Assembly (NCBI GenBank): GCA_964534895.1
Contig: CAZHQB010000002.1
Location: 1-45,946 of the forward strand
Direction of reading: 5' to 3'
Length of the DNA: 45,946 nucleotides
Origin: an uncultured Micavibrio sp.
GTDB taxonomy: Bacteria > Patescibacteriota > Minisyncoccia > Moranbacterales > GCA-2747515
The position numbers and the translations under genes were made by a program. Within the stretch, counting starts at the first letter, position 1, and the number at the start of each line of letters is the position of its first letter. Below, one piece after another: positions 8,571-26,122 of the stretch. Under the pieces are notes generated by a model that saw only the letters and a program-made list of their open reading frames with translations, did no database searches and was not told the origin of the DNA.

Positions 8571-9158
8571 TTAAATTAGTGATTTTATTTTTTCAAAAAT
8601 TTCTTGTTTTGGTTTGTTCCCATCTATTTTATGTAATTTGAAAATTTTGTTGTATTCATTGAATAATTTATTTTTATCTTCTAAATATTGTAATCCTTGT
8701 GAGGGTTTATCATCTCTTTTCATAATTTCTTTTGGTTTAATTGATAGGAAAAATTTATAATTAGGAGAGGTGATGTGCGTGAAAAAAGATGGAATGTATC
8801 GCTTTTTGGATAAGTATGCGATATTTACTATCATATCATAAAAATACCTATCAGTAAGTATGTAATTATACCCATTCCTATCTAATTTTTTGATAAGAGA
8901 TTTGAATCTAAAAATATCAATGAGTAGTGCAACTTTGCGAAGCCAAATTTTGGACCATGATGCTTTTGTCACATCTTTTTGCTTTGTGTAGTGACAGGTT
9001 TGAAACCTGTCACTACGGTTTGAGATATTTGCAACGGAGAACTGGACAGCATGAAAATAGAATACCTTATTTTTGTTATTTTCCAAGTATTCTTGTAATA
9101 ATTGTATTTGAGTTGATTTACCAGAACCATCAAGTCCTGAAATTGAGATTATTTGCAT
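8571..9158 (-). CDS. Thymidylate kinase-like P-loop kinase
   Basis: P-loop GLDGSGKST close to the N-terminus and a DRY motif (LTDRYFYD). ATG at 9158 (MQIISISG) is preferred over the listed TTG at 9167. The CDS contains an in-frame palindromic repeat. Confidence 0.65.
   Translation of the reverse strand: MQIISISGLDGSGKSTQIQLLQEYLENNKNKVFYFHAVQFSVANISNRSDRFQTCHYTKQKDVTKASWSKIWLRKVALLIDIFRFKSLIKKLDRNGYNYILTDRYFYDMIVNIAYLSKKRYIPSFFTHITSPNYKFFLSIKPKEIMKRDDKPSQGLQYLEDKNKLFNEYNKIFKLHKIDGNKPKQEIFEKIKSLI
8970..9016. repeat. REP-like palindrome, family A, copy A1 (inside a CDS)
   Basis: The 29-nt palindrome gtagtgacaggtttgaaacctgtcactac is at 8988-9016. The 5' flank cacatctttttgctttgt is shared with copy A2. 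Confidence 0.85.
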
Positions 9159-9160
9159 GA

Positions 9161-9189
9161 TTGACAATTGTTTGATTATGTGCTAATAT
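9161..9189 (+). promoter_or_regulatory. Sigma70-like promoter
   Basis: TTGACA (9161-9166), 17-nt spacer, TAATAT (9184-9189), upstream of the 9281 gene. Confidence 0.45.
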
Positions 9190-9280
9190 GTATAGTCATG
9201 CTTGTACGCTATATAGTAATTGTACAGCATATAATCATTTTTATAAAGTTGTTTAAAAATCTACAATAGGGAGATTGATT

Positions 9281-9640
9281 ATGACTACTCAGAATTTAGC
9301 GGATTTTATGAGTCATGTTGGGGCAGTTGTGTCGGGTGCTGTCATTATGTTTCTAGTTTATTATCTAGTGACAACGATTATTCTTTGCAGAAACAATGAT
9401 ATTGAAATTGTAAGTACTGGTAAAAGTGCATACATTAAAAAAGACGGAAAAAAATATCCGATTACAGATAATGATATTCCAGGTATCGTTACGAATGGGC
9501 CTGGTAAGATTGTTTTGTACAATAATGATTGTCAACAGACCCTAAGAGTTTCTGGTTTTGAGAATGCGGGATTCGATATTATACAGGCTAATGGAATAAC
9601 CTGTATAAATGGCATTAATATTATAGAAATGTTAAGTTGA
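9281..9640 (+). CDS. Hypothetical membrane-anchored protein
   Basis: GGGAG RBS 7 nt upstream of the ATG at 9281. One TM helix. No recognisable domain. Confidence 0.5.
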   Translation: MTTQNLADFMSHVGAVVSGAVIMFLVYYLVTTIILCRNNDIEIVSTGKSAYIKKDGKKYPITDNDIPGIVTNGPGKIVLYNNDCQQTLRVSGFENAGFDIIQANGITCINGINIIEMLS

Positions 9641-9649
9641 GGTAATATT

Positions 9650-10057
9650 ATGAAAATAATAAGTTTAGTTGTCATCGGACTCATCTTGGTGACATTTGCA
9701 GAGAATAGTTTTGCTTCGTCCAAGAAAGTCATGGCTGTCCTTGATAATCTTGCAAAAACAATTGATAAAACAAGGCAACAAAATGCTAATCTTTCATATG
9801 TTAAATTTCAGATGTATGCAAAATTTAACATAACGCAGATTAAGAAAAAATATCAATCTGCATATGGAATCGTTCTCCTTCGTGAGGCCAAAGAAATATG
9901 CCATTGGTCATTAGGGAGAAAAAATGATATCAAATTTATGGATAATTTTGATATGATTCTGCTGGTGGATAAATCGCCAGGTGAACAAGAAAAAATTATT
10001 GAGGACCTGAAAGAAAAGGCAGAATACTGCCATAACAATTTTCAGTCATCAAAATAA
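9650..10057 (+). CDS. Hypothetical secreted protein
   Basis: N-terminal signal-peptide-like segment (MKIISLVVIGLILVTFAENSFA). Starts 9 nt after the upstream stop. Confidence 0.55.
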   Translation: MKIISLVVIGLILVTFAENSFASSKKVMAVLDNLAKTIDKTRQQNANLSYVKFQMYAKFNITQIKKKYQSAYGIVLLREAKEICHWSLGRKNDIKFMDNFDMILLVDKSPGEQEKIIEDLKEKAEYCHNNFQSSK

Positions 10058-10064
10058 ATTTACG

Positions 10065-10096
10065 CCAGTTAGTTTAAGATAAACTAACTGGTTTTT
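10065..10096 (+). terminator. Rho-independent terminator
   Basis: 11-bp stem ccagttagttt/aaactaactgg with loop aagat, followed by TTTTT. Confidence 0.7.
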
Positions 10097-10107
10097 ATTT
10101 TTATTGG

Positions 10108-10152
10108 CACATCTTTGCTTTATGTAGCGACAGGTTTGAAACTTGTCGCTAC
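10108..10152. repeat. REP-like palindrome, family A, copy A2
   Basis: gtagcgacaggtttgaaacttgtcgctac at 10124-10152, with the conserved 5' flank cacatctttgctttat. It ends 3 nt from the rtcB stop codon. Confidence 0.85.
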
Positions 10153-10155
10153 TTT

Positions 10156-11658
10156 TTAATAAACAATAACACTAACAGGTTGCATTTTAGCTACAACTTT
10201 TGCTATTCCATTTGCTTCTACTCCTTCTATTACACGATTTATGTTTTTGTATCTTGCGCTGTCTTGATTTAGTACAATATTTGATTTTGCATTGTATAGA
10301 TGTACTCCTTTTTCTTCCATTTTTGCAAATAATTCATCTTTGTTTTTAATACTTTTTTCATCGCTGTTAATTCCTTTTCCTGTGCCGTGTGGTGCTGAGT
10401 AAAAACTTTCTGCGTTGTCATCTGTGCCTACGCAAATAAAAGCGTCTGTACTCATAGATGATGGGATAAATGCAGGTTCACCTATGTCTTTATATAGAGA
10501 ATGGTGTCCCATACGACTTGGTCCATAAGCTCTGGAAGTATTTGAACGGTGTACCCAGACATCTTTGTTAAAGTGATTTTCTTTTGTTATTGATATGTGG
10601 GGCATATCATATATTAAGTCCATATCAGCATCACGATTTAGGGTTTGTTTAATTGTTTTTGCTATATTGTGTGTAATAGTTGTTCGGTTAGATGTACCAA
10701 AATTGGACGCTGCAGCACGTGCTGTCATATATAATTCTCCATCTGGTCCGTTTGCATCATATTTGAGCAAGGAATCATCACCAGCCATATGTTTTTTGAT
10801 AGCTTCTTGCATTTCATTGTACACATCTTTTTTTCTGGAATTAAAAGTCATTTTTCCCAGTGTAACCATGAGAGATTGTGAAAGATGTTCACGCTTTTTG
10901 GCTGTGTGTGTATACATTGTATATTGTCCCAAGATACCAGAACCAGTATGTATCATGAATAAGTACTGACCTTTTTCGATACCCATTTTTTTTGCTTTTT
11001 CTTCATCCACAATATCAGAGACTTTCATAAGGTCTAAGAAGTGATTTCCGGCAGCACCTAGTATACCAAGTCGATATTTTGCCATGTGTAAATATAATTT
11101 TGGTATTACATCAAAAATATCCTGACGCGACATTTTTTTATCAAAAAAATTTCCTCCATTTTGTGTATTCTCTAACTCATTTTTAGTACGGATACCTAGA
11201 TGTTCAATTATAGCAGATGTTCCTTTGCGACAAATATCAACTACCACATCAAATGGTACATAGGTACCCAAGTATGTTTTTGTGGGTACAGTACTAACGA
11301 GTTGTTTAAAAAGCATTTGAATTTCATCATCATCAATGTTGTTTTCATGCAAGTTGGTTTTTAGAAGCCTCATTCCACAGTTTGGATCTGAGTCATTTAC
11401 TTGGGGTAAAATATATTTATCAGATACAATTGTGGTGCCAGATGCATTTTTGCGTCCTGGTTTTGATGTGATATCGGGTAGTGATGCGGTGTGGCGGAAT
11501 AGCCCTTCATTTGATCCGATGTCTTCCACTTTTGCAAAAGTTTCATCATTTGGAAATAAATCTTTACTCATAAAAAACCGTGAAGGCACAGTCATTTTAT
11601 TAGTTTTGAATTCTGATTGATGTTCGGATATTTTTTTGATATTTTTGATATATTTCAT
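10156..11658 (-). CDS. rtcB: RtcB-family RNA ligase (divergent)
   Basis: RtcB active-site landmarks occur in order: DPNCGM, GNHFLDL, IHTGSG, TITHN, SAPHGTGKG. Confidence 0.75.
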   Translation of the reverse strand: MKYIKNIKKISEHQSEFKTNKMTVPSRFFMSKDLFPNDETFAKVEDIGSNEGLFRHTASLPDITSKPGRKNASGTTIVSDKYILPQVNDSDPNCGMRLLKTNLHENNIDDDEIQMLFKQLVSTVPTKTYLGTYVPFDVVVDICRKGTSAIIEHLGIRTKNELENTQNGGNFFDKKMSRQDIFDVIPKLYLHMAKYRLGILGAAGNHFLDLMKVSDIVDEEKAKKMGIEKGQYLFMIHTGSGILGQYTMYTHTAKKREHLSQSLMVTLGKMTFNSRKKDVYNEMQEAIKKHMAGDDSLLKYDANGPDGELYMTARAAASNFGTSNRTTITHNIAKTIKQTLNRDADMDLIYDMPHISITKENHFNKDVWVHRSNTSRAYGPSRMGHHSLYKDIGEPAFIPSSMSTDAFICVGTDDNAESFYSAPHGTGKGINSDEKSIKNKDELFAKMEEKGVHLYNAKSNIVLNQDSARYKNINRVIEGVEANGIAKVVAKMQPVSVIVY

Positions 11659-11673
11659 AATCTATCTTGATTT

Positions 11674-11702
11674 GTAGTGACAGGTTTTAAGCTTGTCCCT
11701 AC
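11674..11702. repeat. REP-like palindrome, family A, copy A3 (degenerate)
   Basis: gtagtgacaggttttaagcttgtccctac, lying between the RAYT stop and the rtcB start. Confidence 0.75.
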
Positions 11703-11710
11703 TGTTAAAA

Positions 11711-12196
11711 TTAAATGTTATATTTATCTTTGTTCCACTGTCTAGGGTTAATCATAATATATTCTCGGATTTTATTCAATGATTCATCCTTTCTAATTAT
11801 ATGGTCATAAAATGAGCGTTGCCATTGAAATTTGTTTGTTGGGTTAGTATCGTTAATTTTTCTGGATGAAAATGTTTTAAATCCTCGTATTATTTCAGAT
11901 AATCCATGTGTTGTAGGGACAGGTTTCAAACCTGTCCCTACGTTGTCATTTATTTCAATGATAACGTGAACATGGTTTGGCATAATTATGTATTCATCTA
12001 TATTTATATTATTATAGTGATTTGGTAAATTGGTTAAAACATCTTGTGCAATATTGCCATATTCATTTAATATCATCTTTTCATCAATTATTTTTCCGAA
12101 AAAATGTCTTTTATTTTTTGTGCAAATTGTTATGAAATACATGCCGTTTTGTGAATAATCGTAATTTGATAGTCTGGTTTTCTTGCGATGTTTCAT
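11711..12196 (-). CDS. REP-associated tyrosine transposase (RAYT; IS200/IS605-like Y1 HUH family)
   Basis: N-terminus RLSNYDYSQNGMYFITICTKNKRHFFG, HUH motif MPNHVHVII, Tyr motif QRSFYDHIIR. The start is taken at MKHRKK (12196). The listed longer ORF reads through the upstream palindrome. Confidence 0.8.
   Translation of the reverse strand: MKHRKKTRLSNYDYSQNGMYFITICTKNKRHFFGKIIDEKMILNEYGNIAQDVLTNLPNHYNNINIDEYIIMPNHVHVIIEINDNVGTGLKPVPTTHGLSEIIRGFKTFSSRKINDTNPTNKFQWQRSFYDHIIRKDESLNKIREYIMINPRQWNKDKYNI
11913..11941. repeat. REP-like palindrome, family A, copy A4 (inside the RAYT CDS)
   Basis: gtagggacaggtttcaaacctgtccctac, identical 29/29 to A5. It encodes VGTGLKPVPT. Confidence 0.85.
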
Positions 12197-12208
12197 ATAA
12201 ATAATATT

Positions 12209-12237
12209 GTAGGGACAGGTTTCAAACCTGTCCCTAC
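12209..12237. repeat. REP-like palindrome, family A, copy A5
   Basis: gtagggacaggtttcaaacctgtccctac, lying between the GT4 stop (12252) and the RAYT start (12196). Confidence 0.85.
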
Positions 12238-12251
12238 GATTGAAATGATTA

Positions 12252-13424
12252 CTAATTGTAAATATTTTGATATTGACTTGCTGTGTTTTTGATATTAAAT
12301 GTTTGGTGGGCAAAATCGTATGCATTTTCGCCTAATGCTTTTCTTTTTTGTTCATTTTTTGCTAAGTCTAGTATTGCACTTGCTAATTCTTCTGAATTAT
12401 TTTGTTTTACTATTACATTTATTTTTTCATTGCTAAATTCTTTGAATAATTCTAAATCAGATGCAATTACTGGTTTTTTGCATGCGTAAGGTTCTATCAT
12501 AGCTAAGGGAACATCAAATTTGCCAGCCATATTTGTGACGGGGAATATCACAGTGTCAGACATATTATAAACAGCATTAACATCTGGGAATGTGTCTGTA
12601 AAAGCAACTTTGTCAATGTGTCCTGCATCTGTAATTTTTTTGATGACCTCTTGTTTTTTCTTTGCATCGGCTTTGTTCTTTATGCGACACGCACATAAAT
12701 ATTTTATGTGAGAATTGTCTGGATTTTGCCAGAGTTGGATAAATGTGTCTACTATTAAATCAGTAGCACCAAGTCGCACAAATTCACCTGGATAGGTGAC
12801 TACAAAATTTTTATCTGTTATATTCCATTTTTTCATCAATTTTGCGTCTTTTGAAGCTGGTACAAATTTTCTAAAATTAAATCCTGGATAAATTTGTGCT
12901 ACATTATTAAATCCTAAATTCTCTAATTTAGTTTTTGCCCATTTGGAGTAGGTGACTATTGTGTCGCCAAACATAAATTTTTTGATTTCAGTATCAGAAT
13001 ATATATCTTTACGAAGAGTAGCAACAGTTTGAATTGATTTTGTGTTGGAATTTTTGATGCATAGATTAATGGCAAGGCTATTGAGTCGTGCTGGTGTAAA
13101 CATATAATGAATAATATCAAATTTTTTTCTACTTATTATTTGAAATATAAATGAATAAATTTTTTGTAGAAGTGAAAAATGATTATCTGTATAAATTTTT
13201 TGTTGAGTGATGTGGCTGGGAATATTGTCAATATATTTATCAACTAAAATTGTAATATCTTGATTTGTGGTATTGCACGCCAAATCATAGGCAAAATTTT
13301 TACTAGCTTCATCCCAAGGAGGAGAAAGTGGGCGAGTGACGAATAATATCTTTTTTTGTGGTGCAGAGACTAAGTCACTAGGTCTAGTTACATGGTCTCT
13401 GTGTAGATTTGTGTTACTTGACAT
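12252..13424 (-). CDS. Glycosyltransferase family 4 (GT-B)
   Basis: 390 aa. KKILFVTRP near the N-terminus and a GT4-like C-terminal half. The N-terminal 22 aa overlap a family C repeat. Confidence 0.8.
   Translation of the reverse strand: MSSNTNLHRDHVTRPSDLVSAPQKKILFVTRPLSPPWDEASKNFAYDLACNTTNQDITILVDKYIDNIPSHITQQKIYTDNHFSLLQKIYSFIFQIISRKKFDIIHYMFTPARLNSLAINLCIKNSNTKSIQTVATLRKDIYSDTEIKKFMFGDTIVTYSKWAKTKLENLGFNNVAQIYPGFNFRKFVPASKDAKLMKKWNITDKNFVVTYPGEFVRLGATDLIVDTFIQLWQNPDNSHIKYLCACRIKNKADAKKKQEVIKKITDAGHIDKVAFTDTFPDVNAVYNMSDTVIFPVTNMAGKFDVPLAMIEPYACKKPVIASDLELFKEFSNEKINVIVKQNNSEELASAILDLAKNEQKRKALGENAYDFAHQTFNIKNTASQYQNIYN
13365..13400. repeat. Palindromic repeat, family C, copy C1 (degenerate, inside a CDS)
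   Basis: agagactaagtcactaggtctagttacatggtctct. It shares the flank gtgcagagac...catggtctct with C2 and has 6 internal mismatches. Confidence 0.65.
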
Positions 13425-13525
13425 AATGTATAATATATGATACAGTTAAGCGTTATATTTCATTGTGAAGTATAACATATTTTGTTGTTTTAGAATATAA
13501 TATATAGATTTAAGAGGAGGAGATT

Positions 13526-13756
13526 ATGGAGAAGGTTATAAAGTATACTTTATTTCCTACCTATTGCATGATCATGTTGCTCATATATTTTTGCGAGCGA
13601 CAACATTTAGAAAGTATGTGTTATACTATGTTTTGTATGTCAGTTTTTGTGATTTTTATTTTTATAGATCATTATACGGATAAAATCATCGCGGAGATTC
13701 GCAAAACTCAACCTAAAGTCAAAGAGGAGAAGGAATATGAGCATCTTTCAACTTGA
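13526..13756 (+). CDS. Hypothetical small membrane protein
   Basis: Strong RBS (aagaggaggagatt before the ATG). Two hydrophobic helices. Confidence 0.5.
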   Translation: MEKVIKYTLFPTYCMIMLLIYFCERQHLESMCYTMFCMSVFVIFIFIDHYTDKIIAEIRKTQPKVKEEKEYEHLST

Positions 13757-14307: not shown

Positions 14308-14425
14308 TTGAATATGAGCAGTATGCAAATTTGTGTGCTACTCTTTTTTTGTCTTTTCTCTATAACCTTAGTATTATCACCAATATTTACTACTATTTTT
14401 ATATTTTGATTATTAAATGTGGTGC

Positions 14426-14461
14426 AGAGACCAGGTCGCTAAGTCTAGCGACATGGTCTCT
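14426..14461. repeat. Palindromic repeat, family C, copy C2
   Basis: agagaccaggtcgctaagtctagcgacatggtctct, between convergent genes. It is followed by TTTTT and probably also acts as a terminator. Confidence 0.8.
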
Positions 14462-14467
14462 TTTTGA

Positions 14468-14821
14468 TTATTTTTTTTCAATTTGTTTATTACTATTATT
14501 ATGTGTAACTATAATTTTGATAGGGGAAGTATTTTGTTGTTTTTTTAATTCTATTAATTTTCTCTCGTCTTTTTTTATTTCTACATCTTTAGCATCTTTT
14601 GTCTCACCATTTAGTATAATTTCGTAGTGAAACGTTGCATCGGATTTTGTTTTGTTGTCAATTACGAAGCGGTTGTCTGAATTGGTCAGGGGTGCGATAA
14701 AATAGATGCTCCAAAAGTTTTGATTTTTACTCCGTTGGTCTTTTTCTGTTTGTGCCAAAAATAGCATACTTGCAGTAAGTGTGATAATGACTGTTAAAAT
14801 TATGATGTATTGGGATTTCAT
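14468..14821 (-). CDS. Hypothetical membrane-anchored protein
   Basis: 117 aa with an N-terminal TM helix and then a soluble beta-rich-looking domain. It lies downstream of the large membrane protein gene. Confidence 0.55.
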   Translation of the reverse strand: MKSQYIIILTVIITLTASMLFLAQTEKDQRSKNQNFWSIYFIAPLTNSDNRFVIDNKTKSDATFHYEIILNGETKDAKDVEIKKDERKLIELKKQQNTSPIKIIVTHNNSNKQIEKK

Positions 14822-14868
14822 TTTTTAGTATGTTAGTAATTATTAGGGTAGTGAGTAGTAATGTATTT

Positions 14869-14897
14869 GTAGTGATAGGTTTGAAACCTGTCACTAC
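14869..14897. repeat. REP-like palindrome, family A, copy A6
   Basis: gtagtgataggtttgaaacctgtcactac. It ends 3 nt from the stop of the 14901 gene. Confidence 0.85.
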
Positions 14898-14900
14898 ATT

Positions 14901-16889
14901 TTATTTGCGGACAAATACACTTAGTTCATTGTTTTGATATATTCTGTAAAAAATATCATTATTTAGGAATTGTCCAGCGTCTTCTGTTGTGTTTACTATT
15001 ACAGCGTGTACATTTAAGTTTTCAAAGCACTTAGTAGCAAAGTCGCTTTTTGGATTGCTTATCATTTCTCTAGTGCAAGTTTCTTTATCTGGATGAGTTT
15101 CGTACCTTTTGAAATAACTGCGGGAGAGTGGAAAGGAATAATCATAAGCATAAAAAACTTTGAGCCATGTGTCAGATACTATGTAATTGTGGTCTTTTAT
15201 AATCCAAAACTTGTTGGTTAGGATTTGTTTTTTGAATACTTTACTTGTGTAGTCACCTGTGTGAAAAGTCTGAAGTGCTTGATTTGTTTTTGGTTTGTCG
15301 TTCATACTTGTAGCGTTGTCACGTACTCCACTTACAAAGGTAAATGTGATAACTGCAAACAAAAAAGTTGTTATCAAAAACTGGGGAAGTGCTAGTTTTT
15401 TGTTTTTGGAAATTATGTGAATAGTCCAAATAATTGCAAGTCCAGATAAAATTGCTAGGGGGAATGCTGCGTAAGTTGCAATTCTGGTGGAGATGATATT
15501 GACTTTTAAATATTGTGGAACTGTTGACATAAGTAGTATCGCCCAACCCCATCCTAGCAAAAAAGCTGTTGCATAGGTATTGGTAGGTATGTTTTTTTTG
15601 CCAAGATGTGCAAATTTACCAAATCGCTTGAGTAGTGCAAATCCAGATAACATTAACAGTCCAATAACACCAAAAACAAAACGTGCACTTCCGAGCATAT
15701 ACATAAGTTGTTCAAATGGCACACCTGTGCGAGTAGATTTGGATGGCGTTCCGATGGATGAGGTAACTGCATCGCGGTTTAAGTACGAAGGTGGTGCGAT
15801 GAAAAAAAGTAGTCCAATAGACAAAATCAGTAGAGGTATGACATATGGATTTTTAAGTAAAGTAAAAAGTTTTTTGTAGCCATCCCAGCCGTCTTTTTGC
15901 AATACAATAAAACCAAGCAAACTAAATATGAAAGTATAACCAAATATAAGAGTACTAAGATGGTGTGTGTAGGCTAATCCTGTTAGTAGTAAAATTGCAC
16001 CAACTAATAATGTAGATTTTTTTTCTTTGAATGCACGATATACAAAATATATAACAGCAGGAATAAGTAAATTACCTATAACATTTCCAACAACTCCACC
16101 GCTGACAAATTTTGTGCCAGCACCACTGATAGTCCAAAGAGGTCCGATAAAAAGAAGTGTGAGAATTGCTACGTGTGTGCCATAGCGATAGCGTTCAAAT
16201 AACCTGCGTGAAAGTATAAATAACATCAAAACACTAAAGATGTTTATAACAAAAAGTACAAGGGAAGGAAATGTGCTTACCACAGATTGCCCAGTAAAAG
16301 TTTTTACTACTGCAAAAATAATATGTTCACCTTCTATGAAATCTGCGATGTCTTGTGGTTGGCTAAAGGTGGGAGTGTTATCATTTGTTTCCAATTCAAT
16401 TTTTTTGTAATCTGGGAGCTTTTGGTCTGTGGTAATTTTTTGAACCCAAAACATATGATGTCCTAGATCAGTTGCAGTAGGGAAGATTGTATTTATGAGA
16501 AATAGTCCTTTTGCAACAATAGTAAAAATAATTAACAATGCAATTAAGACGGTTTGAATTTTGGAAAAAGTAAAGATTGTCGTAGTGGACGGACATGTCC
16601 GTCCACTACATTTGTGTTTAATAAAAATAGCAAAAACAAAAAATTGCAAAGTTACAACTGATATTGTAATGAGTAAGCTCTGCTGAGTAAGTAAGACGTT
16701 AAATAAGTCTAATAAGATAACGCAAAGAGTGATAATTGCAAAACTTATAGGCACGCTCAAGACAAATCTCTCAAAAGTGCTAAAAAAATCTTTGTGAAAA
16801 ACCGCACGCAAAAAGGCGTATCCTGGTAAAAATAAAAGCGCAAAAGTGACACTCAAGAAAAATAACTGTTGTGATAAAAATTCGTTCAT
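14901..16889 (-). CDS. Large polytopic membrane protein, probable GT-C-type glycosyltransferase (function tentative)
   Basis: 662 aa with more than 12 TM helices and a C-terminal soluble domain. Its context is an envelope glycosylation locus. It contains an in-frame family B palindrome. Confidence 0.55.
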   Translation of the reverse strand: MNEFLSQQLFFLSVTFALLFLPGYAFLRAVFHKDFFSTFERFVLSVPISFAIITLCVILLDLFNVLLTQQSLLITISVVTLQFFVFAIFIKHKCSGRTCPSTTTIFTFSKIQTVLIALLIIFTIVAKGLFLINTIFPTATDLGHHMFWVQKITTDQKLPDYKKIELETNDNTPTFSQPQDIADFIEGEHIIFAVVKTFTGQSVVSTFPSLVLFVINIFSVLMLFILSRRLFERYRYGTHVAILTLLFIGPLWTISGAGTKFVSGGVVGNVIGNLLIPAVIYFVYRAFKEKKSTLLVGAILLLTGLAYTHHLSTLIFGYTFIFSLLGFIVLQKDGWDGYKKLFTLLKNPYVIPLLILSIGLLFFIAPPSYLNRDAVTSSIGTPSKSTRTGVPFEQLMYMLGSARFVFGVIGLLMLSGFALLKRFGKFAHLGKKNIPTNTYATAFLLGWGWAILLMSTVPQYLKVNIISTRIATYAAFPLAILSGLAIIWTIHIISKNKKLALPQFLITTFLFAVITFTFVSGVRDNATSMNDKPKTNQALQTFHTGDYTSKVFKKQILTNKFWIIKDHNYIVSDTWLKVFYAYDYSFPLSRSYFKRYETHPDKETCTREMISNPKSDFATKCFENLNVHAVIVNTTEDAGQFLNNDIFYRIYQNNELSVFVRK
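16582..16609. repeat. REP-like palindrome, family B, copy B1 (inside a CDS)
   Basis: gtagtggacggacatgtccgtccactac, translated as CSGRTCPSTTT. Confidence 0.85.
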
Positions 16890-18133: not shown

Positions 18134-18146
18134 AGTCAGTAAAAGT

Positions 18147-18176
18147 CTAAGTTAAAAACTAACTTAGGCTTTTTTG
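18147..18176 (+). terminator. Rho-independent terminator
   Basis: 8-bp stem ctaagtta/taacttag with loop aaaac, then gcTTTTTTG. Confidence 0.7.
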
Positions 18177-18215: not shown

Positions 18216-18243
18216 GTAGTGGACGGACATGTCCGTCCACTAC
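18216..18243. repeat. REP-like palindrome, family B, copy B2
   Basis: gtagtggacggacatgtccgtccactac, identical to B1 and lying between convergent genes. Confidence 0.85.
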
Positions 18244-18249
18244 CAATGA

Positions 18250-19404
18250 TCAATGGAATAAAGATTTTAGTGTTTCTAAATAGTGTGCACTTATTTTATC
18301 CCATGTAAAATGTTGCAGTGTATATTCTTTTGCTTTTTTTGTAAATTTATTTTTATCAAAGTTTGTGCTTGTTATTTCTAATATTTTATTTTTCCACATT
18401 AGTTCATTTTCTGGTTCTAATAAGAAGCCGTTTACACCATCTTTGATGGCATCTTTTAATCCTTGCAAATTTGATGAGAGTACTATGCGATCACATACAA
18501 CAGCCTCTAAAGCGTTGAGTCCAAATCCTTCTGCAGAACCCTTTATCTTTATATTTGGCGATATATAGATATCTGCTGTGTTAAATAGGATGTTCATTTC
18601 TTCTTGTTCTATATTTGGAAATAATATTACTCTGTCTTCAAATGAATGTTTTTTGATATATTTTTTGCATAGTGTATAATTTTCACTGTCACCAACTGTG
18701 CGTGGATTGTAGCCACCAGCACCTACAAGTATAAAGTCATTTGGTAGTATTGGCATAACCCTATCAATAAACCAGTGCAATCCCTTGTGAGGAACAAAGC
18801 GACCAACTCTTAAAATTATTTTTTTATTCTTGTAATAGTCAATATCTTTTTTAGTGGTATTGGAAAGTAATTTTTCTAATTCTTCTCTTGTGTGTTTTTC
18901 ATATACTTTTTTTATATTAACTCCATTTGGTATAAATGTACATTTATTCTTATCAATTCCGAGTCTAATTGCTTCTTCTATTGCATAATTACCAACCATG
19001 ATTAGTTTATCAAAATTTTTGAGGGCTGGGATATTGAGAAATTTATATATTTTGCCCATCGGAGAATTTTTGTATGCAAAAGTTAAATCAAGCGCATGTA
19101 TGACACTGACAAATTTTTGTTTGTGATAAAATAATTTGAAAAATTCTCCAATAGGCGCAAGTGTGCCGTCCCCAAAAAGCACAACTTTGTATTTGTGTAA
19201 GATAAAAGGGAGTTTTATAAATAAGTAGAATACAAAAGGTAAAAAGTTTCTTTTGCCTTTTGTGTTTGCAATTAGTTTGATTGAGGTTATTTTTGATAAA
19301 TATTGGTATAAATTATAATTTTGGTCTTCTATGCCACCTTGTGTTGGTGGGTATGATTTTGAAATAAAAAGTATTTTTAAATCAGACTTATTTTGTTTTG
19401 TCAT
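18250..19404 (-). CDS. Glycosyltransferase family 4
   Basis: 384 aa. N-terminus KILFISKSYPPTQGGIE and a C-terminal EGFGLNALEA motif (E-x7-E type). Confidence 0.8.
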   Translation of the reverse strand: MTKQNKSDLKILFISKSYPPTQGGIEDQNYNLYQYLSKITSIKLIANTKGKRNFLPFVFYLFIKLPFILHKYKVVLFGDGTLAPIGEFFKLFYHKQKFVSVIHALDLTFAYKNSPMGKIYKFLNIPALKNFDKLIMVGNYAIEEAIRLGIDKNKCTFIPNGVNIKKVYEKHTREELEKLLSNTTKKDIDYYKNKKIILRVGRFVPHKGLHWFIDRVMPILPNDFILVGAGGYNPRTVGDSENYTLCKKYIKKHSFEDRVILFPNIEQEEMNILFNTADIYISPNIKIKGSAEGFGLNALEAVVCDRIVLSSNLQGLKDAIKDGVNGFLLEPENELMWKNKILEITSTNFDKNKFTKKAKEYTLQHFTWDKISAHYLETLKSLFH

Positions 19405-20344: not shown

Positions 20345-20377
20345 ATGTTTATTTAATAATTATATTATTTTTTTATT

Positions 20378-21652
20378 TTATCTTCCAATGCCTTTATATA
20401 ATATTTTATTTTTTGTGATGTCATCTTTATTTAAGATGTTTTTCCCATCAATTATAACTTTTATACCGTTTTCTTTTAATAGCATGCCATCAATATTGTC
20501 AAATTCTTTGTGATTTGTTACTAGAATTATTGCATCTGATTTTTTTAGTAGTGTTGCTAATGTTTTTACAGATGATTTCTCTTTGATATGCGGATCAAAT
20601 GAATGGACTTTTGCTCCATGATGTTTTAAGGCTTTTACGATATCATAGTAAGGTGATTCTCTATCATCATCCACATTTGCTTTATATGCAATTCCCAAAA
20701 TACCCACATTTGTACCATTTACTGGCATTTTGACTTCGTTCAATTTATCTTGCAATAATTCAACGGTGTACTCTGGCATGGAGTTGTTGATTGTGCGAGA
20801 TGTACGCAAAAATTTGTGATCAAAACCAGCCCGTTTTGCACGTTCTATCAAATAATAAGGGTCAACAGGTATGCAGTGACCACCGATTCCACAAGAAGGG
20901 TAGTGAGCCATAAATGCAAAAGGTTTTGTACTTGCTCCGTCAATCACATCTTTTACATCTATATTAAGTGCATCAAAAGATTTAGCAAGTTCATTTACAA
21001 ATGCGATGTTTATATCTCGGAAAGAATTTTCTACCACCTTGCAAGCCTCTGCTTCTCGGATATGCTTCATTGGGCGAATTTCTCCATCGATTATTGATTC
21101 ATAAAAATCAACAGATTTTTTTAAACCTTTTTTAGTGAATGCTCCTACAACTCTAGGTATATTAGTTACGTTCCATTTAGGGTCACCTGGATTGATACGT
21201 TCTGGACAATGTGCAATAAATACGTCAGAACCAATTTTGTGTCCATATTCTTCAAAAACTGGGCGTACTATTTCTTCACTAACGCCTGGGTTTACTGTAG
21301 ATTCCAAAACTACTAATGCTCCTTTTTTTAGATTTTTTGCACTCATCTCACATGCACCACGTACAGGCAGTAAGTTTGGTGTATAGAATTCATCTACTGG
21401 AGTAGGCACGCAAATTAGTACAATGTCTGCTTTTTTAATTTGTGTTGTGTCAGAAGTTGCCTTCATAGGAAATTTTGGTAAATTTTCATAAAGATATTCT
21501 TCTTCAATAGGGGAAATTTGTTTGTTGATAAGTTTAACCTTTTTTTCATCAAGTTCAATTCCTATAACATTATAACCACGCTCCTGTGCTCGCACAGCAA
21601 GCGGAAGTCCAACATAACCTAGTCCTATAACAGCCACTGTTTGCTTTTTCAT
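20378..21652 (-). CDS. Nucleotide-sugar dehydrogenase (UDP-glucose/GDP-mannose dehydrogenase family)
   Basis: N-terminal Rossmann motif VAVIGLGYVGLPLA. A conserved catalytic Cys region (CGIGGHCIP). Confidence 0.9.
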   Translation of the reverse strand: MKKQTVAVIGLGYVGLPLAVRAQERGYNVIGIELDEKKVKLINKQISPIEEEYLYENLPKFPMKATSDTTQIKKADIVLICVPTPVDEFYTPNLLPVRGACEMSAKNLKKGALVVLESTVNPGVSEEIVRPVFEEYGHKIGSDVFIAHCPERINPGDPKWNVTNIPRVVGAFTKKGLKKSVDFYESIIDGEIRPMKHIREAEACKVVENSFRDINIAFVNELAKSFDALNIDVKDVIDGASTKPFAFMAHYPSCGIGGHCIPVDPYYLIERAKRAGFDHKFLRTSRTINNSMPEYTVELLQDKLNEVKMPVNGTNVGILGIAYKANVDDDRESPYYDIVKALKHHGAKVHSFDPHIKEKSSVKTLATLLKKSDAIILVTNHKEFDNIDGMLLKENGIKVIIDGKNILNKDDITKNKILYKGIGR

Positions 21653-21802
21653 AATATTTAGTATATTAGTTATTAGTTAGTAGTGTACAAACATTTTAGG
21701 ATTTTTGCAATACAAAATTGATTTGGGTGCTTGCATTAATTATTGTATAATGATAACATCATACAGTTTTGAATAATGTTAATTATTTTAGAGGGAAAAC
21801 TT

Positions 21803-22957
21803 ATGCATATAGGAATAAACGTATCATTTTTAAGAAAGCCTTATACAGGTATAGGACAGGTTACATTACATTTACTCAACGAATTAATAAAACAAGCACA
21901 AAATAATAAATCGATGAAAAATTATAAATTTTTTCTTTATTTTGAGGAGGAGTGTGATATTGATGTGCCAAAGAATTTTCATAAACGAAAGTTTCTTCCA
22001 GGATTTTATAGAAGAGATGATTTGTTTCGCAAATTGCTTTGGGAAAAGTTTTATTTACCCAAAAGGGCCAGGCAAGATAAATGTGATGTATTGTTGAGTC
22101 TGTATCAGTCGGCAACTGTTATAAAATATACTGATATGAAACATATTATGTTGGTGCATGATGTCATACCACATATTTTGGTAGAGTATTTGGATAATTT
22201 TCGTAAAAAAATATATTGGGAGATGGTAGAGAAGGGGATATATAGTTCAAACAAAATTATAACTGTTTCAGAACATACAAAAATTGATTTGGAAAAAAGA
22301 TTAAATATCAAACCAGCAAAAATTATAGTAGACAAAATTGCAGTTGATCCTATTTTTAATCAAGATTTGTCTGATAAAGATATTGATAAAGTACTACAAA
22401 AATATAAATTGGATAGGGGATATATTTACAGTGGTGGAGGTTTAGAATTACGCAAAAATGTAGAAGGGACACTTGGAGCGTATAGATTACTTTTGGATAA
22501 GTGGAGTGACGCTCCTGATTTGGTGATTTCTGGAAAACTAATGCCAGAATTATCTCCTATGATTACAGATGTGGAGAAAATAGTAAAAGAATTAAATATA
22601 AAAGACAGGGTGCATATTTTGGGTTTCGTAGAACAACAGGATTTGCCTGCACTCTACAGAGGCGCAAAGTTGTTTGTATTCCCATCTAATTATGAGGGAT
22701 TTGGTATGCCAGTACTTGAAGCAATGAGTGTGGGAACACCAGTACTTACAGCTCGTAATTCTTCACTTGAAGAAGTGGGCGGTGAAGTGGTGGCTTATGT
22801 AGAGACTGGCGAAAAACAAGAAATTTTTGAAAAAATGTTTGAATTATTAAAAGATGAAAAACAATTACAAAAGATGAGTACTGAGGGCAAAGAGCGAGCT
22901 AAGCACTTTTCATGGGACAAATTTACAACAAATCTTTGTAAAATAATTTGCAAATAA
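21803..22957 (+). CDS. Glycosyltransferase family 4
   Basis: ATG at 21803 is preceded by agaggga. C-terminal motif EGFGMPVLEAMSVGTPV. Confidence 0.85.
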   Translation: MHIGINVSFLRKPYTGIGQVTLHLLNELIKQAQNNKSMKNYKFFLYFEEECDIDVPKNFHKRKFLPGFYRRDDLFRKLLWEKFYLPKRARQDKCDVLLSLYQSATVIKYTDMKHIMLVHDVIPHILVEYLDNFRKKIYWEMVEKGIYSSNKIITVSEHTKIDLEKRLNIKPAKIIVDKIAVDPIFNQDLSDKDIDKVLQKYKLDRGYIYSGGGLELRKNVEGTLGAYRLLLDKWSDAPDLVISGKLMPELSPMITDVEKIVKELNIKDRVHILGFVEQQDLPALYRGAKLFVFPSNYEGFGMPVLEAMSVGTPVLTARNSSLEEVGGEVVAYVETGEKQEIFEKMFELLKDEKQLQKMSTEGKERAKHFSWDKFTTNLCKIICK

Positions 22958-23046
22958 GATGCTATAGCAAAAAGCAGTCCAACCTTCGGATGCTTGAATG
23001 TTTGACTTTTGGGATGTAGAGATTATTTTGTGTATCGAATATTATA

Positions 23047-23080
23047 GCAACCAGGTCGCTAAGTCTAGCGACCTGGTTGC
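23047..23080. repeat. Palindromic repeat, family C, copy C3 (perfect)
   Basis: gcaaccaggtcgctaagtctagcgacctggttgc: a 15-bp stem with a 4-nt loop, followed by tgtttt. Confidence 0.8.
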
Positions 23081-23094
23081 TGTTTTAAGATAAA

Positions 23095-23151
23095 CAAAAA
23101 ACCAGCAGGGACTTCACACAATTACTGTGGTGTGGTATGCTGGTAGTTTTT
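23095..23151 (-). terminator. Intrinsic terminator for the minus-strand small-gene operon (possibly bidirectional)
   Basis: Outer stem accagca/tgctggt encloses the inner pairing cacac/gtgtg. It is flanked by an A-run and a T-run and lies immediately after the stop at 23152. Confidence 0.55.
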
Positions 23152-23529
23152 TTAGCAAATTATTTTATTATCGGGAGCTATGGCTAATGACAACGAAAGC
23201 TTACTCCCGACATCTCCTGTTGCCGACGCCATTACCTTCACATTACAGCGAAAAACTTGCCACCCATAAGCTTGAAGCAATCTTTCGATTTTTTCACCTA
23301 CGGCGCCCATGTGAATTCGCAGTTCGTCTGCCTTACCATTGTATGGTACTGCGGACAGTTCCACTTTTTGCTTCGCGCTTTTTTTTAGTAATTGAATATC
23401 AATTACAGACGGCAATTTTTTTAGAAGTTCTCTTATCAGCTTTGCCGTTATTGGCTCAATCTTAGATTCAATTGCAGCCTCCAAAAGTTCTTGAGGCGTT
23501 ATGAATTCCAAGTGTTTTTTTGTTTTCAT
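23152..23529 (-). CDS. Hypothetical protein (125 aa)
   Basis: RBS aaaggag lies 7 nt before the ATG at 23529 (MKTKKHLEF). The region is visibly more GC-rich than its surroundings. No recognisable motif. Confidence 0.5.
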   Translation of the reverse strand: MKTKKHLEFITPQELLEAAIESKIEPITAKLIRELLKKLPSVIDIQLLKKSAKQKVELSAVPYNGKADELRIHMGAVGEKIERLLQAYGWQVFRCNVKVMASATGDVGSKLSLSLAIAPDNKIIC

Positions 23530-23551
23530 GACAAATCTCCTTTTGTCCAAA

Positions 23552-23818
23552 TTATTGTATAGACTTTTCCATATTTTCTGTTGTTAACAGTTGGAAGTAT
23601 TTTTTGAGCACTTCAAGATTAAAGTCTAATTCTTCTTCACTCTTGATGCTTTGTGGAATTGAGATTATTCCAAGTGAATATGGAATGTGATCCAAAATTT
23701 CCTCAAATGCATGTCCAATCATAGGTGATTGGATTTCATTAAACCTATTATTCCTCTCTTGTAGAGTTGTGATAAATGCTAAACATAAAATCGAATTTAC
23801 ATTTTTTTCCTGTTCCAT
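23552..23818 (-). CDS. Hypothetical protein (88 aa)
   Basis: RBS gggaga upstream of the ATG. Acidic protein with no recognisable motif. Confidence 0.5.
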   Translation of the reverse strand: MEQEKNVNSILCLAFITTLQERNNRFNEIQSPMIGHAFEEILDHIPYSLGIISIPQSIKSEEELDFNLEVLKKYFQLLTTENMEKSIQ

Positions 23819-23864
23819 TTTTTTGTCTCCCGCTTCGTGATGAATTTTCTTTTACTAAATTAAG

Positions 23865-24035
23865 TCAAAAAAATCCATCAGGTTTAATAAATCCGAGACC
23901 ACGCAAAAAGCCTTCAATAAATCTACGACTTTTGTTTGGCCCAGCAACTACACTTATGCTAAGCATAATTATTCCAGTTAATATAAATACTATACTGGCT
24001 ATTATTGCTTGCAAATATTCTTTTAAGATAATCAT
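23865..24035 (-). CDS. Hypothetical small membrane protein (56 aa, not in the ORF track)
   Basis: Hand translation: MIILKEYLQAIIASIVFILTGIIMLSISVVAGPNKSRRFIEGFLRGLGFIKPDGFF. RBS gggagg. The start overlaps the upstream stop (ATGA). Confidence 0.4.
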   Translation of the reverse strand: MIILKEYLQAIIASIVFILTGIIMLSISVVAGPNKSRRFIEGFLRGLGFIKPDGFF

Positions 24036-24235
24036 TTTTCCTCCCGAAATTCTTCTTCAGACATTTGTCCTAAATAGGACAAATGCAATATTATCATATC
24101 ATCTTTTGTGTAATGGTCGATGGTTGATTTTTTTACATTTTTGGTGGTCGTTGCGAATACATCTGTTTTCTCATAAGAACCAAAGCAATCGCTTCCCCGA
24201 ACAGTAATTAACCACCAATGTAACTTTATTCCTCC
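24032..24235 (-). pseudogene. Paralogue of the 24226-24483 gene with no canonical start codon (frame-broken tandem duplicate)
   Basis: Open frame of 67 codons: GGIKLHWWLITVRGSDCFGSYEKTDVFATTTKNVKKSTIDHYTKDDMIILHLSYLGQMSEEEFREEK. It aligns with KLYWWMITI...ISHLGEMSKKEFCEEE of the upstream gene and lies in the -1 frame relative to it. Confidence 0.35.
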
Positions 24236-24483
24236 TCACAAAATTCTTTTTTGCTCATTTCACCTAAATGTGAAATACTCAATAATGCACTAGTCGAATC
24301 CAAATCTCTCATAGCTTTAAGTATTTCTTTTTTTGTGATATTTGGTTTGTTGGTTGATACAAATTCATTTACCACACGAATTTGTACTCCCAAAGACGAT
24401 GATTTACAAATAATTGTGATCATCCACCAATATAGTTTTTCTTCCGGTGGATGTGGTTTGGGTGTTCTTGGTATAATTGGCAT
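24226..24483 (-). CDS. Hypothetical protein (85 aa), first gene of the small-gene operon
   Basis: RBS aggagg lies 5 nt before the ATG. No recognisable motif. Confidence 0.5.
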   Translation of the reverse strand: MPIIPRTPKPHPPEEKLYWWMITIICKSSSLGVQIRVVNEFVSTNKPNITKKEILKAMRDLDSTSALLSISHLGEMSKKEFCEEE

Positions 24484-24580
24484 CTTTTCCTCCTATATTA
24501 ATTGTTTTTGTGATATACTAATGTTAAAGAGCCGTTAAATAACTGATAGTTAAATATAGGATAATTTTATATTTTTGTCA

Positions 24581-26122
24581 ATGAATGAGTTAACAAAACA
24601 CAAAAGAATATTGACGGTTTTGAATGTGGTTGTGGTTACGGGTTTAATTGTTTTGCAACACATTGGTTTTTTTGATAGTGGTGAGTGGTTTGGGTTTGTG
24701 CTTTTTTGTGCAGGGCTTTTTGTTTTGGCACTGTACCGGCCTTGGGTTGTATTTGTTTTACTTGTGGGAGTTGTTCCTATTGAGATTATAAATATAGCTC
24801 CTGATATACTGCCTATAGATCTGCGGCCATATCAATTACTTACTACACTTTTGGTCTTGGCTGTTATTGTTCGTAGGATTTTTGGTGGTGAAAAATTTAT
24901 TTTTAAAGCAGGTATATTTGATATTTTGGTTAGTGTTTTGATAGTTTTGGGATTTGTTAGTGCTTTTTTGTCTCCTTTTGACAATAGTGCTATCAAACAA
25001 GCGTTAGTAGTTTTTTCTTTTGGGCTTTTGTATTTTGTAGTGCGGTTTTTTGTACGCAAAAAAGATGATGTTTTGGCATTGTTTCCAATTATGGTGTCCA
25101 GTGGCGTGGTGATAGGAATTTATGCGATTGTGCAAAATATTTTATTTACTAGTGGTGGAGTACATGCAGAAGTGATGCCGGGACGGCCAAATGCTACTTT
25201 TGCTGAACCTGATTGGCTGGGGATATATTTAGTGTTTGTTTGTGCTGTGATTTTGGCGTATTTGTATTATAGTGTACGACACAAACATTTATGGAAATTT
25301 TTTGATATTGCTCTTTTTGGTTCGGCCACTGTAGTGGTGACAGCACTTATTATTACAGTTGCTCGCAGTGCTTGGGTTGGATTTGTGGCTGTGGCTTTTG
25401 CTTATCTTTTGAGTGTGTTTTTGCAAAAGAAATATAAATTGTTTGGAATGCATAGTTTTTGGATTGTTAGTGTGGGAGTGTTTAGTTTGATTATTGTGAG
25501 TGTGTTTAGTTTGACTAATTTTGAATTATTACATAGAGCTAGTAGCACTAGTTCAGGTTTGCAAGAAATTACAATCGCCTGTGATTGTAGTGGACAGACA
25601 TGTCTGTCCACTACAACTGTGATTGAAAATGTAGAAGAGTTAACTCAATATAATTGCAAACACATAAATTTAGAAGATGTAGAAAGTGAAAAAACAAAAG
25701 GCTTAAGCGTGCTAAAAATTTATCGCAAAGATCCAAATGTAGTAGTGCGTACAGATGTGTACAACAAGACAATTACACTCATAAAACAAAGTCCAGTTTT
25801 GGGGTATGGTTGGGGCAGTAGTGGACAGATGTTAGGCAATGATGAAAACGGCACACCTCTCAATGCAAGTAATATATTTTTGGAGACTGCACTTTCAGTT
25901 GGGTTGCTTGGAGTAGGTGTTTTGATTGCAATTTTTATACTTGGTGGCTTTTATGCTGTCAGAAGTATCCAAAAACTAAAAAACACAAAACAAAAAAGCG
26001 TAGCAATCTTTGTGCTTGTGGGACTGGTAGCAATAATTGTACCAAATCTATTTAATGCAGGATTGTTCTTGGGATTGGTATGGTTGTTTATGGGAATGCT
26101 TGACGGTTTGCGTAAAGTGTGA
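24581..26122 (+). CDS. O-antigen ligase/polymerase family membrane protein (Wzy_C-like)
   Basis: Polytopic protein. The motif TVARSAWVGFVAVAF is typical of the O-antigen ligase domain. A large loop contains a family B palindrome. ATG at 24581 is preferred over the TTG at 24575. Confidence 0.7.
   Translation: MNELTKHKRILTVLNVVVVTGLIVLQHIGFFDSGEWFGFVLFCAGLFVLALYRPWVVFVLLVGVVPIEIINIAPDILPIDLRPYQLLTTLLVLAVIVRRIFGGEKFIFKAGIFDILVSVLIVLGFVSAFLSPFDNSAIKQALVVFSFGLLYFVVRFFVRKKDDVLALFPIMVSSGVVIGIYAIVQNILFTSGGVHAEVMPGRPNATFAEPDWLGIYLVFVCAVILAYLYYSVRHKHLWKFFDIALFGSATVVVTALIITVARSAWVGFVAVAFAYLLSVFLQKKYKLFGMHSFWIVSVGVFSLIIVSVFSLTNFELLHRASSTSSGLQEITIACDCSGQTCLSTTTVIENVEELTQYNCKHINLEDVESEKTKGLSVLKIYRKDPNVVVRTDVYNKTITLIKQSPVLGYGWGSSGQMLGNDENGTPLNASNIFLETALSVGLLGVGVLIAIFILGGFYAVRSIQKLKNTKQKSVAIFVLVGLVAIIVPNLFNAGLFLGLVWLFMGMLDGLRKV
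25587..25614. repeat. REP-like palindrome, family B, copy B3 (inside a CDS)
   Basis: gtagtggacagacatgtctgtccactac, translated as CSGQTCLSTTT. It shows a compensatory G-C to A-T change relative to B1 and B2. Confidence 0.85.

Follow-up and report, generated by a model that had tools for sequence, protein, structure and literature searches.

Most work on repetitive extragenic palindromic (REP) elements and the REP-associated tyrosine transposases (RAYTs, also termed TnpA_REP) concerns Proteobacteria and Cyanobacteria. In TnpA_REP subclass 2.4 (Quentin et al. 2018, PMC6006769), the genes are accompanied by double-foot REPs, and REPs also lie in frame within tnpA_REP between the HuH motif and the tyrosine; GTAG REPs located near the 3' ends of genes, with G.T pairs in their stems and, in several species, with intragenic, in-frame copies, have likewise been described (Di Nocera 2013, PMC3733652). 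Here, from the anatomy of the elements, the family and fold of the associated enzyme, covariation, synteny and in-frame translation, we characterize 12 palindromes of three families (A, B and C) spread over 17 kb of a 46-kb stretch of DNA (45,946 nucleotides of contig CAZHQB010000002.1, assembly GCA_964534895.1; hereafter the window), together with the RAYT gene that lies among them. We consider it very probable (roughly 0.85) that the palindromes are REP elements with a RAYT, a known, published type in a new host, family A being the partner of the window's RAYT and family B that of a second RAYT type. The host, an AT-rich bacterium with a small genome, is probably a member of the Patescibacteria (candidate phyla radiation, CPR) near Moranbacteria, judging from homologue names: the closest named homologues of the window's proteins come from metagenome-assembled genomes (MAGs) of Moranbacteria, Parcubacteria and Patescibacteria. 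The literature searched contained no mention of RAYTs together with Patescibacteria.

As in subclass 2.4, REPs with 5' GT[AG]G and 3' C[TC]AC feet flank the gene here; that subclass rests mainly on Cyanobacteria and Bacteroidetes, whereas the window belongs to a probable patescibacterium, and the internal REP region of the subclass is highly variable in length and sequence, whereas here its position is fixed within the clade (PMC6006769). The Escherichia coli system of REPs and bacterial interspersed mosaic elements (BIMEs) with YafM shares with the window the Y1 HUH fold, the GTAG hairpin and a REP-flanked RAYT gene, single-copy in E. coli and present once in the window (4ER8; Nunvar 2010, Ton-Hoang 2012, Messing 2012). 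However, the REPs of E. coli are single-footed, with an imperfect stem and a set orientation, and form BIMEs, in contrast to the double-foot elements described here; the E. coli RAYT gene holds no REP, whereas the window's gene has an internal copy; and the sequence similarity of the window's RAYT to 4ER8 is weak (profile E=4e-4). In the REPIN-RAYT systems of Pseudomonas (Bertels and Rainey 2011, PMC3116915), the RAYT occupies a fixed locus, is seemingly inherited vertically and has its own repeat family, as here, but the unit that moves is a REP doublet (the REPIN) and not a single symmetric palindrome of 28-29 nt. Rickettsia palindromic elements (Ogata 2000) resemble the window's elements in being translated in frame within functional genes, often in loops; RPE-1 is 100-150 bp long and has no RAYT, whereas here 5 of the 12 copies are intragenic and some sites are common to related species. 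Finally, IS200/IS605 elements have the same enzyme fold and hairpin-guided chemistry on single-stranded DNA (ssDNA), but the window has no insertion-sequence ends and no tnpB, and it is apparently the hairpins, not the gene, that multiply. The comparison with relatives brings out some instructive features: REPs kept at orthologous sites within genes, a fixed RAYT locus at which the REP family switches, and an enzyme of mosaic make-up.

The RAYT gene and its palindromes

The window contains one RAYT or Y1 gene only, located between genes for a glycosyltransferase and RtcB (Table 1). Its product matches Pfam Y1_Tnp (PF01797; E=9e-12, 45.6 bits against a cutoff of 23), and its best NCBIfam model is REP_Tyr_transpos (72.5 bits), the IS200 model reaching 32 bits against a cutoff of 55. 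The two histidines of the HUH motif and Tyr146 are invariant across 30 homologues. When aligned with E. coli TnpA_REP (PDB 4ER8), the HUH motif falls on PEHMH and Tyr146 on Tyr115, which we take to be the catalytic residue of that enzyme. A search of the PDB with the single sequence was marginal (E=0.32), and the match to 4ER8 noted above was obtained with a profile. In the AlphaFold2 model (pLDDT 86, pTM 0.80), the fold is that of the family: the top 30 PDB matches retrieved by Foldseek are all Y1 transposases (IS200/IS608/ISDra2/TnpA_REP), and 4ER8 has the highest query TM-score (TMq 0.60, rmsd 4.7, E=9e-7). The internal peptide VGTGLKPVPT forms a lower-confidence loop of this model, between the strand at residues 75-82 and the helix at residues 99-116. 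These matches identify the gene as a RAYT (TnpA_REP, a Y1 HUH nuclease). Family A is its partner: the order at the locus is family A REP, RAYT with an internal family A REP in a surface loop, and family A REP, which by its layout makes the RAYT and its A copies a REPtron of the subclass 2.4 type.

The internal palindrome leaves its mark on the homologues of the protein. Among the best 120 of them, a list that favours proteins having 5-residue words in common with the query, so that the proportion is not a prevalence, 106 show x-x-x-G-[LF]-K-P-x-x-x in the corresponding position. Residues 3 and 8 of this peptide are encoded by complementary codons in 104 of the 106, with eight pair types represented (N/F, T/V, E/S, D/S, A/A, M/I, V/T and K/F), and the central L or F merely reflects the middle base of the palindrome. 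Other RAYT homologues have B-type palindromes at the internal site (for example, VGDRHVCPL and VVDGHDRPL).

Two further observations concern the extent of RAYT reading frames. The longest open reading frame (ORF) of the window's RAYT, 204 aa, extends the gene over window 12197-12325; the 5' REP would then be translated, as RRDRFETCPY, since this ORF starts ahead of it. Gene callers picked the 161-aa form, and REPs can inflate ORF predictions. In Kuenenia hertensis (L034 3919-4161) and in a MAG (L076 4539-4784), only the C-terminal half of a RAYT is present, beginning exactly at the internal REP, which suggests truncation or rearrangement at the REP.

Pattern searches of the window returned the family A and family B copies listed in Table 1 and the cores of two family C copies, at 14430 and 23050, against a chance expectation of 0 matches (100 shuffles); the third C copy, at 13365, is degenerate and still recognizable by reading the sequence. 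The 12 palindromes in three families that an earlier sequence-only reading had reported at these positions are therefore real, and a blastn-short sweep of the window found no further full copies of any of the three families. The units are 29 nt (A), 28 nt (B) and 36-40 nt (C) long. Those of families A and B have stems of 12-14 bp closed by GTAG and its complement CTAC, so that each copy presents both a 5' GT[AG]G foot and a 3' C[TC]AC foot ('double-foot', GTAG...CTAC). A single ssDNA hairpin is predicted for each of the 12 copies, with fold z-scores of -5.9 to -10.2 for 10 of them (-11 to -20 kcal/mol) and of about -2.4 for the two degenerate copies, 11674 and 13365; the former is the most degenerate A copy, with two G.T pairs and one mismatch. 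The elements are GC-richer than the host DNA, as that reading had it (44-57% G+C versus ~32% for the window), and its placement of intergenic copies 3-16 nt from stops or starts holds as well (for example, 3 nt at 10124, 12 nt at 12209 and 6 nt at 18216). What it overlooked are the intragenic copies: reading-frame mapping places 7 of the 12 copies between genes and 5 of the 12 inside reading frames, where they are translated in frame.

Table 1 Coordinates of the RAYT gene and of the palindromic elements in the window
Feature	Position	Strand	Location	Details
RAYT / TnpA_REP gene	11711..12196	-		161 aa; HUH motif PNHVHV (H75, H77), Tyr146
Flank common to the 8988 and 10124 copies	8970..8987		Native tmk coding sequence here (KQKDV)	18 nt, CACATCTTT[TT]GCTTTRT
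Family A REP	8988..9016		In frame in thymidylate-kinase-like gene (tmk) 8571-9158 (-)	Encodes SDRFQTCHY
Family A REP (10124-10152) with 16-nt tmk-like flank	10108..10152		Between convergent genes, 3 nt from RtcB stop
Family A REP, RAYT 3' flank	11674..11702		8 nt past RAYT stop, 15 nt before RtcB ATG
Family A REP in RAYT gene	11913..11941		In frame, between HUH motif and catalytic Tyr	Encodes VGTGLKPVPT
Family A REP, RAYT 5' flank	12209..12237		12 nt before RAYT ATG, 14 nt past GT1 stop
Family A REP	14869..14897		Between two minus-strand genes, 3 nt past DUF6541 stop
Family B REP	16582..16609		In frame in DUF6541 membrane-protein gene 14901-16889 (-)	Encodes SGRTCPSTT
Family B REP	18216..18243		6 nt past stop of glycosyltransferase 18250-19404 (-)	T-run next on that strand
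Family B REP	25587..25614		In frame in Wzy/O-antigen-ligase-like gene 24575-26122 (+)	Encodes SGQTCLSTT
Family C, degenerate	13365..13400		N-terminal coding part of glycosyltransferase 12252-13424 (-)	36 nt
Family C	14426..14461		6 nt past stop of gene 14468-14821 (-)
Family C, full 40-nt form	23044..23083		Between convergent genes

The same sequences are present in European Nucleotide Archive (ENA), Logan and JGI assemblies at 99.96-100% identity. The ENA contig differs from the window at 6 positions in 16.4 kb, none of them in a REP, and the region is also found in one Logan contig and two JGI contigs; as three independent assemblies agree, the elements are not an assembly artefact. Two contigs of the same organism in other assemblies (L002 and L003) terminate exactly inside A copies, at 8988 and at 11913-11941, which is expected of a genome-wide repeat; REPs break short-read assemblies. 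Recognizing REPs in such genomes explains contig breaks of this kind and some over-long ORF calls.

The spacing of the copies is irregular, from 239 nt to several kb. This irregularity and the many copies within genes led us to reject a CRISPR array. Miniature inverted-repeat transposable elements and Rickettsia palindromic elements (70-300 bp, with terminal inverted repeats and target duplication) were also rejected, the units being 28-40 nt long and lacking duplication. Viral contigs scanned for families B and C gave no matches. Two fragments resemble parts of REPs: a 12-nt half-site, GTAGTGGACAGA (25818-25829), corresponds to the left arm of family B and lies inside Wzy, ~200 nt past the full copy, where it may be a relic or due to chance; partial feet, GTAGTGAGTAGTAATG, at 14848-14868, immediately upstream of the A copy at 14869, may be a remnant of a neighbouring REP.

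Pairing and primary-sequence conservation

The comparisons below draw on four syntenic loci in relatives, whose neighbouring proteins are 65-89% identical to those of the window: contigs L123 and L124 (GCA_029940505.1), L125 (GCA_027031945.1) and L137, and L126 and L139 (GCA_029938745.1). The sequence-only reading had stated that differences between copies are mostly paired. With relatives included, this stands for families B and C, but it goes too far for the window's family A copies, in which a single pair covaries (5/25: T-A, C-G or G-C), four transitions alter one side only and give G.T, and one position is truly mismatched. The family B copies of the window show a single double change. 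Treating related copies as independent, and hence overstating the number of events, we found that 4 of the 12 pairs change on both sides and 96% of cells pair among 11 distinct B copies from 6 genomes or contigs (covariation score 0.327 versus 0.133 in shuffles, reached by 0 of 500; slid controls at most 0.10), and that 4 pairs change on both sides and 93% of cells pair among 11 C copies from the window, L123 and seven metagenome contigs (0.222 versus 0.127, reached by 0 of 500). In family C, the search pattern does not cover two of the pairs that change on both sides, and the 4-nt loop is free to vary. The complementary codons of the RAYT-internal copy (104 of 106 homologues) point the same way on a larger scale.

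The cleanest evidence for compensatory change is the orthologous Wzy site, a perfect palindrome in the window, L124 and L125. The REP is identical between the window and L124 at 30 of 30 nt, versus 65% over the rest of the gene, and third codon positions are identical at 10 of 10 sites inside the REP versus 58% outside it. L125 matches the window at 28 of 30 nt, and its two differences are complementary, an A-T to G-C double change. At the DUF6541 site, the copy in the window is perfect, and those in L123 (decayed), L125 and L137 contain G.T pairs or mismatches.

The sequence-only reading had further proposed selection on structure and not on primary sequence. The pairing constraint is borne out; the exclusion of primary sequence is not, given that the GTAG/CTAC feet are near invariant and that the 29-mer of family A turns up far beyond the window. 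In a scan that covered other genomes, one for each species, with 20 fixed bases and the four variable stem pairs left free, it was found, almost unchanged, at no fewer than 119 loci across many phyla and groups, including Brocadiia (Kuenenia), Omnitrophota, Patescibacteria, Dehalococcoidia, Cyanobacteria, Nitrospirota, Bacteroidota and others. Among the matches listed, at least 18 loci come from one Omnitrophota MAG; the 131 A copies vary appreciably only at pair 5/25 (G-C or A-T) and at the middle base; about 6 lie in RAYT genes or RAYT fragments and the others are dispersed; T at -1 and A at +1 occur in just over half of the flanks, with no duplication; and ~19% of copies lie within long open frames versus 63% of random positions. 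The near absence of flank conservation indicates that the mobile unit is the 29-mer itself, and the last comparison means that REPs are depleted from genes, not excluded. Conserved feet and a conserved 29-mer fit both a structural requirement and a sequence-specific protein, the RAYT, that recognizes them.

All four G.T pairs of the window are on the + strand, which has a positive GC skew. They occur in three copies, two of which lie between minus-strand genes, antisense to local transcription, and the third between convergent genes. This weakly favours ssDNA over mRNA, or else a C-to-T mutation bias, and with n=4 it decides nothing.

If the palindromes are REPs served by RAYTs, a REP exposed in ssDNA, such as the lagging-strand template, would fold into a hairpin that the RAYT would bind, reading the GTAG foot, cutting via its tyrosine and rejoining the ends; REPs would thereby be copied, moved or replaced. 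Copies that lose pairing would cease to be substrates, and the lineages that survive would hence show paired substitutions. Frame-keeping insertions would persist in tolerant loops of host proteins, and intergenic copies near stops might act as secondary terminators or stabilizers of mRNA 3' ends. By analogy with the described systems, catalysis, the ssDNA substrate, the direction of copying and the mobilization of REPs by the RAYT are all presumed to apply here.

Intragenic copies and family switching among relatives

Translated copies occur in five genes: family A in tmk and the RAYT gene, family B in the DUF6541 and Wzy genes and family C in a glycosyltransferase gene. The C copy at 13365 is a clean in-frame 36-nt extra segment relative to the L123 orthologue. 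In tmk, the REP peptide falls in an alignment gap with respect to Tmk of the PDB, and the loop is a hot spot for REPs: close orthologues hold there an A, a B or a third-type element (RRDAINRVST), or 2-3 REPs in tandem. The 29-nt A copy of the window and the 28-nt B-like copy of L139 start at the same nucleotide. A recent, simple insertion of the Wzy and tmk REPs was considered and dropped, as the loop is similar in length in REP-free homologues (60 homologues each); the alignments agree better with replacement or with a variable loop that took up its insertion long ago. The 16-18-nt flank of the copy at 10124 is native tmk coding sequence, and this copy therefore seems to have been made with adjacent DNA. 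Recognizing REPs explains odd peptides in predicted proteins, such as VGTGLKPVPT, SGRTCPSTT and RRDAINRVST. The last of these belongs to a fourth double-foot REP family, GTAGAGACGCGATTTATCGCGTTTCTAC, which occurs at L124 8884-8911 and in the tmk orthologues P0245, P0251 and P0253, and not in the window.

In L123, L137 and L139, a RAYT gene directly follows the same glycosyltransferase as in the window; RtcB is next after it in L123 and L139, and the L137 contig stops at the 3' REP. All three REPtron REPs belong to family A in L139, as in the window, and to family B in L123 and L137 (local variants ACAGACATGTCTGT and ACGGTCATGACCGT). These triads indicate that family B has its own RAYT type, and the idea of a separate RAYT for this family is thus borne out in related genomes. 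No B-type RAYT exists within the 46 kb of the window, though three perfect B copies are present; the B-type enzyme of this genome lies beyond the window or has been lost. The Wzy B copy is decayed in GCA_029938745.1, a genome with an A-type RAYT. The TAG stop codon of the upstream glycosyltransferase lies in the GTAG foot of the 5' REP in L137 (7660-7663) and L139 (~584-589).

The switch at this locus extends to the enzyme. Three non-A-type RAYTs among its homologues, P0003, P0008 and P0028, sit at the syntenic locus in relatives. Compared with six homologues that have a non-A palindrome at the internal site, P0008 and P0028 among them, the window's RAYT is 60-70% identical over residues 1-82, 23-40% over residues 83-125 and 73-94% over residues 126-158, whereas the means against 111 A-type enzymes of other lineages are 54%, 70% and 59% over the same segments. 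The central module of 43 residues, consisting of the REP loop and the next helix, thus tracks the REP family and the remainder tracks the host lineage, which suggests recombination. The 5' flank, interior and 3' flank of the RAYT gene are A in the window and L139 and B in L123 and L137, and the tmk loop holds A, B or a third family across genomes. A bolder proposal, drawn from these alignments and in our view rather unlikely, is that double-foot REPs are exchangeable cassettes, with one family taking the place of another at fixed sites, and that a RAYT may swap partners by exchange of its central module. Were it true, the internal REP and its helix would pass from one RAYT to another as a module of specificity and could reseed a REP family after transfer. 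The syntenic relatives constitute a natural experiment, with the same RAYT locus and intragenic sites and different REP families, intact or decayed, and this set could show RAYT-REP co-evolution and whether REPs are replaced in place.

Family C and rival explanations

The full unit of family C, ATAGCRACCAGGTCRCTA-N4-TAGYGACCTGGTYGCTAT, is a 40-nt hairpin with an 18-bp stem, longer than the 34-36 nt given by the sequence-only reading. Most copies have the ends ATAG...CTAT, two of those in the window have AGAG...CTCT, and the GT[AG]G foot is absent from the ends examined in the window and metagenome copies. Metagenome copies, on related contigs, are found after stops, before starts and between divergent genes. 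The C copy at 14426 has an orthologous counterpart in L123 whose outer stem differs. On contig L129, a family B REP (730-757) and a family C hairpin (782-821) lie 24 nt apart. A string that family C has in common with the A copy at 10124 (TAGCGAC/GTCGCTA) prompted the idea that a C unit may be the junction between two A-like REPs placed head to head. We file family C as a REP-like hairpin repeat with no identified enzyme.

Several findings weigh against the palindromes being REPs mobilized by RAYTs. The window holds no enzyme for family B or family C, and no Y1 or RAYT gene was found near any C copy. The RAYT itself scores 72.5 bits with REP_Tyr_transpos, under the NCBIfam equivalog cutoff of 80, which limits a strict-equivalog claim but not family-level membership. 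Several A-type RAYTs elsewhere have the internal copy alone, with no flanking REPs. The DUF6541 REP, at 24-25 of 30 nt versus a gene background of ~70%, is not clearly more conserved than its surroundings, and the REP stretches of Wzy and tmk give no net length gain relative to distant homologues. Finally, 6 of the 9 A and B copies meet a terminator consensus of stem plus T-run.

The terminator matches are what an interpretation of the hairpins as mainly host RNA elements (intrinsic terminators or stabilizers of mRNA 3' ends), with the RAYT incidental, would lead one to expect, as are the position of 7 of the 12 copies between genes near gene ends, mostly near stops, and the metagenome C copies, which often lie 8-22 nt past stops, some with A/T tracts on both sides. 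Among the A and B copies, only 18216 has a T-run on the strand of the preceding gene, and the C copy at 14426 is also followed by one; a GC hairpin with a U-run can be read at 18216 on the minus strand and at 10124 and 14426 on the plus strand, and a terminator of this kind on the transcribed strand is lacking at 14869, at 11674 and in the five intragenic copies. At 14869 the T-run is on the untranscribed strand, the five copies inside reading frames are read through, the copies at 11674 and 12209 are directly upstream of start codons, C copies also lie between divergent genes, and the G.T pairs are antisense at two of three copies. The GTAG feet and the RAYT triad would be left unexplained, and a scan of the whole window against Rfam at the gathering threshold found nothing. 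The intragenic copies and wrong-strand T-runs mean that a terminator role is not a general explanation; we regard the host-RNA account as unlikely, and a secondary role at transcript 3' ends as plausible for some copies. For family C, an unrelated hairpin of its own origin, such as a bidirectional terminator or a protein-binding palindrome, deserves somewhat more credence, although we lean against it. The missing foot (ends ATAG/AGAG), the lack of a RAYT near any copy, the longer stem of 16-18 bp with its freely varying 4-nt loop and the after-gene position conserved between the window and L123 would all suit such an origin, but the dispersal is REP-like, with an in-frame intragenic copy and divergent intergenic ones, the string TAGCGAC/GTCGCTA is common to family C and the A copy at 10124, and a C hairpin neighbours a B REP at 24 nt in L129.

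Palindromy could also be preserved by mutation itself, for example through intrastrand template switching or through gene conversion between arms or copies, with no selection on the hairpin. The many perfect palindromes, old intragenic ones included, and the likeness of REPtron REPs within a genome (all A or all B) set against their difference between genomes, reminiscent of concerted evolution, accord with this; however, the process would account neither for the conserved GTAG feet and the link to RAYT type nor for the decay of the Wzy B copy in a genome with an A-type RAYT, and quasi-palindrome correction would hit any palindrome, whereas only these families are kept, which makes it very unlikely as the explanation. 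Most improbable of all is conservation of the intragenic copies for their encoded, Cys-containing peptides (for example, CSGQTCLSTT) and not as DNA: the peptide is indeed kept in six Wzy orthologues and in DUF6541 orthologues, but the synonymous positions of the Wzy REP are conserved too, the only changes are complementary at the DNA level, and the same 28-mer is also found between genes and in proteins that are unrelated, where it is read in two frames.

Other structures of the window and its relatives are distinct from the three families. AT-rich hairpins with T-runs directly after genes, at 10064-10092, 18141-18173 and 26780-26802, look like ordinary intrinsic terminators and not REPs. Long, GC-rich perfect palindromes without GTAG feet occur in relatives, at L125 9352-9393 (AACAAGGTTCAACCTAGGGTCGACCCTAGGTTGAACCTT) and L126 5976-6009 (GGTAACGTTAGGGTAACGTTACCCTAACGTTACC). 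At 981-1575 (+) of the window, an 85-aa ORF is followed, after a 1-nt gap, by a 111-aa ORF of the ParE toxin family (Pfam), and the two look like a toxin-antitoxin pair.

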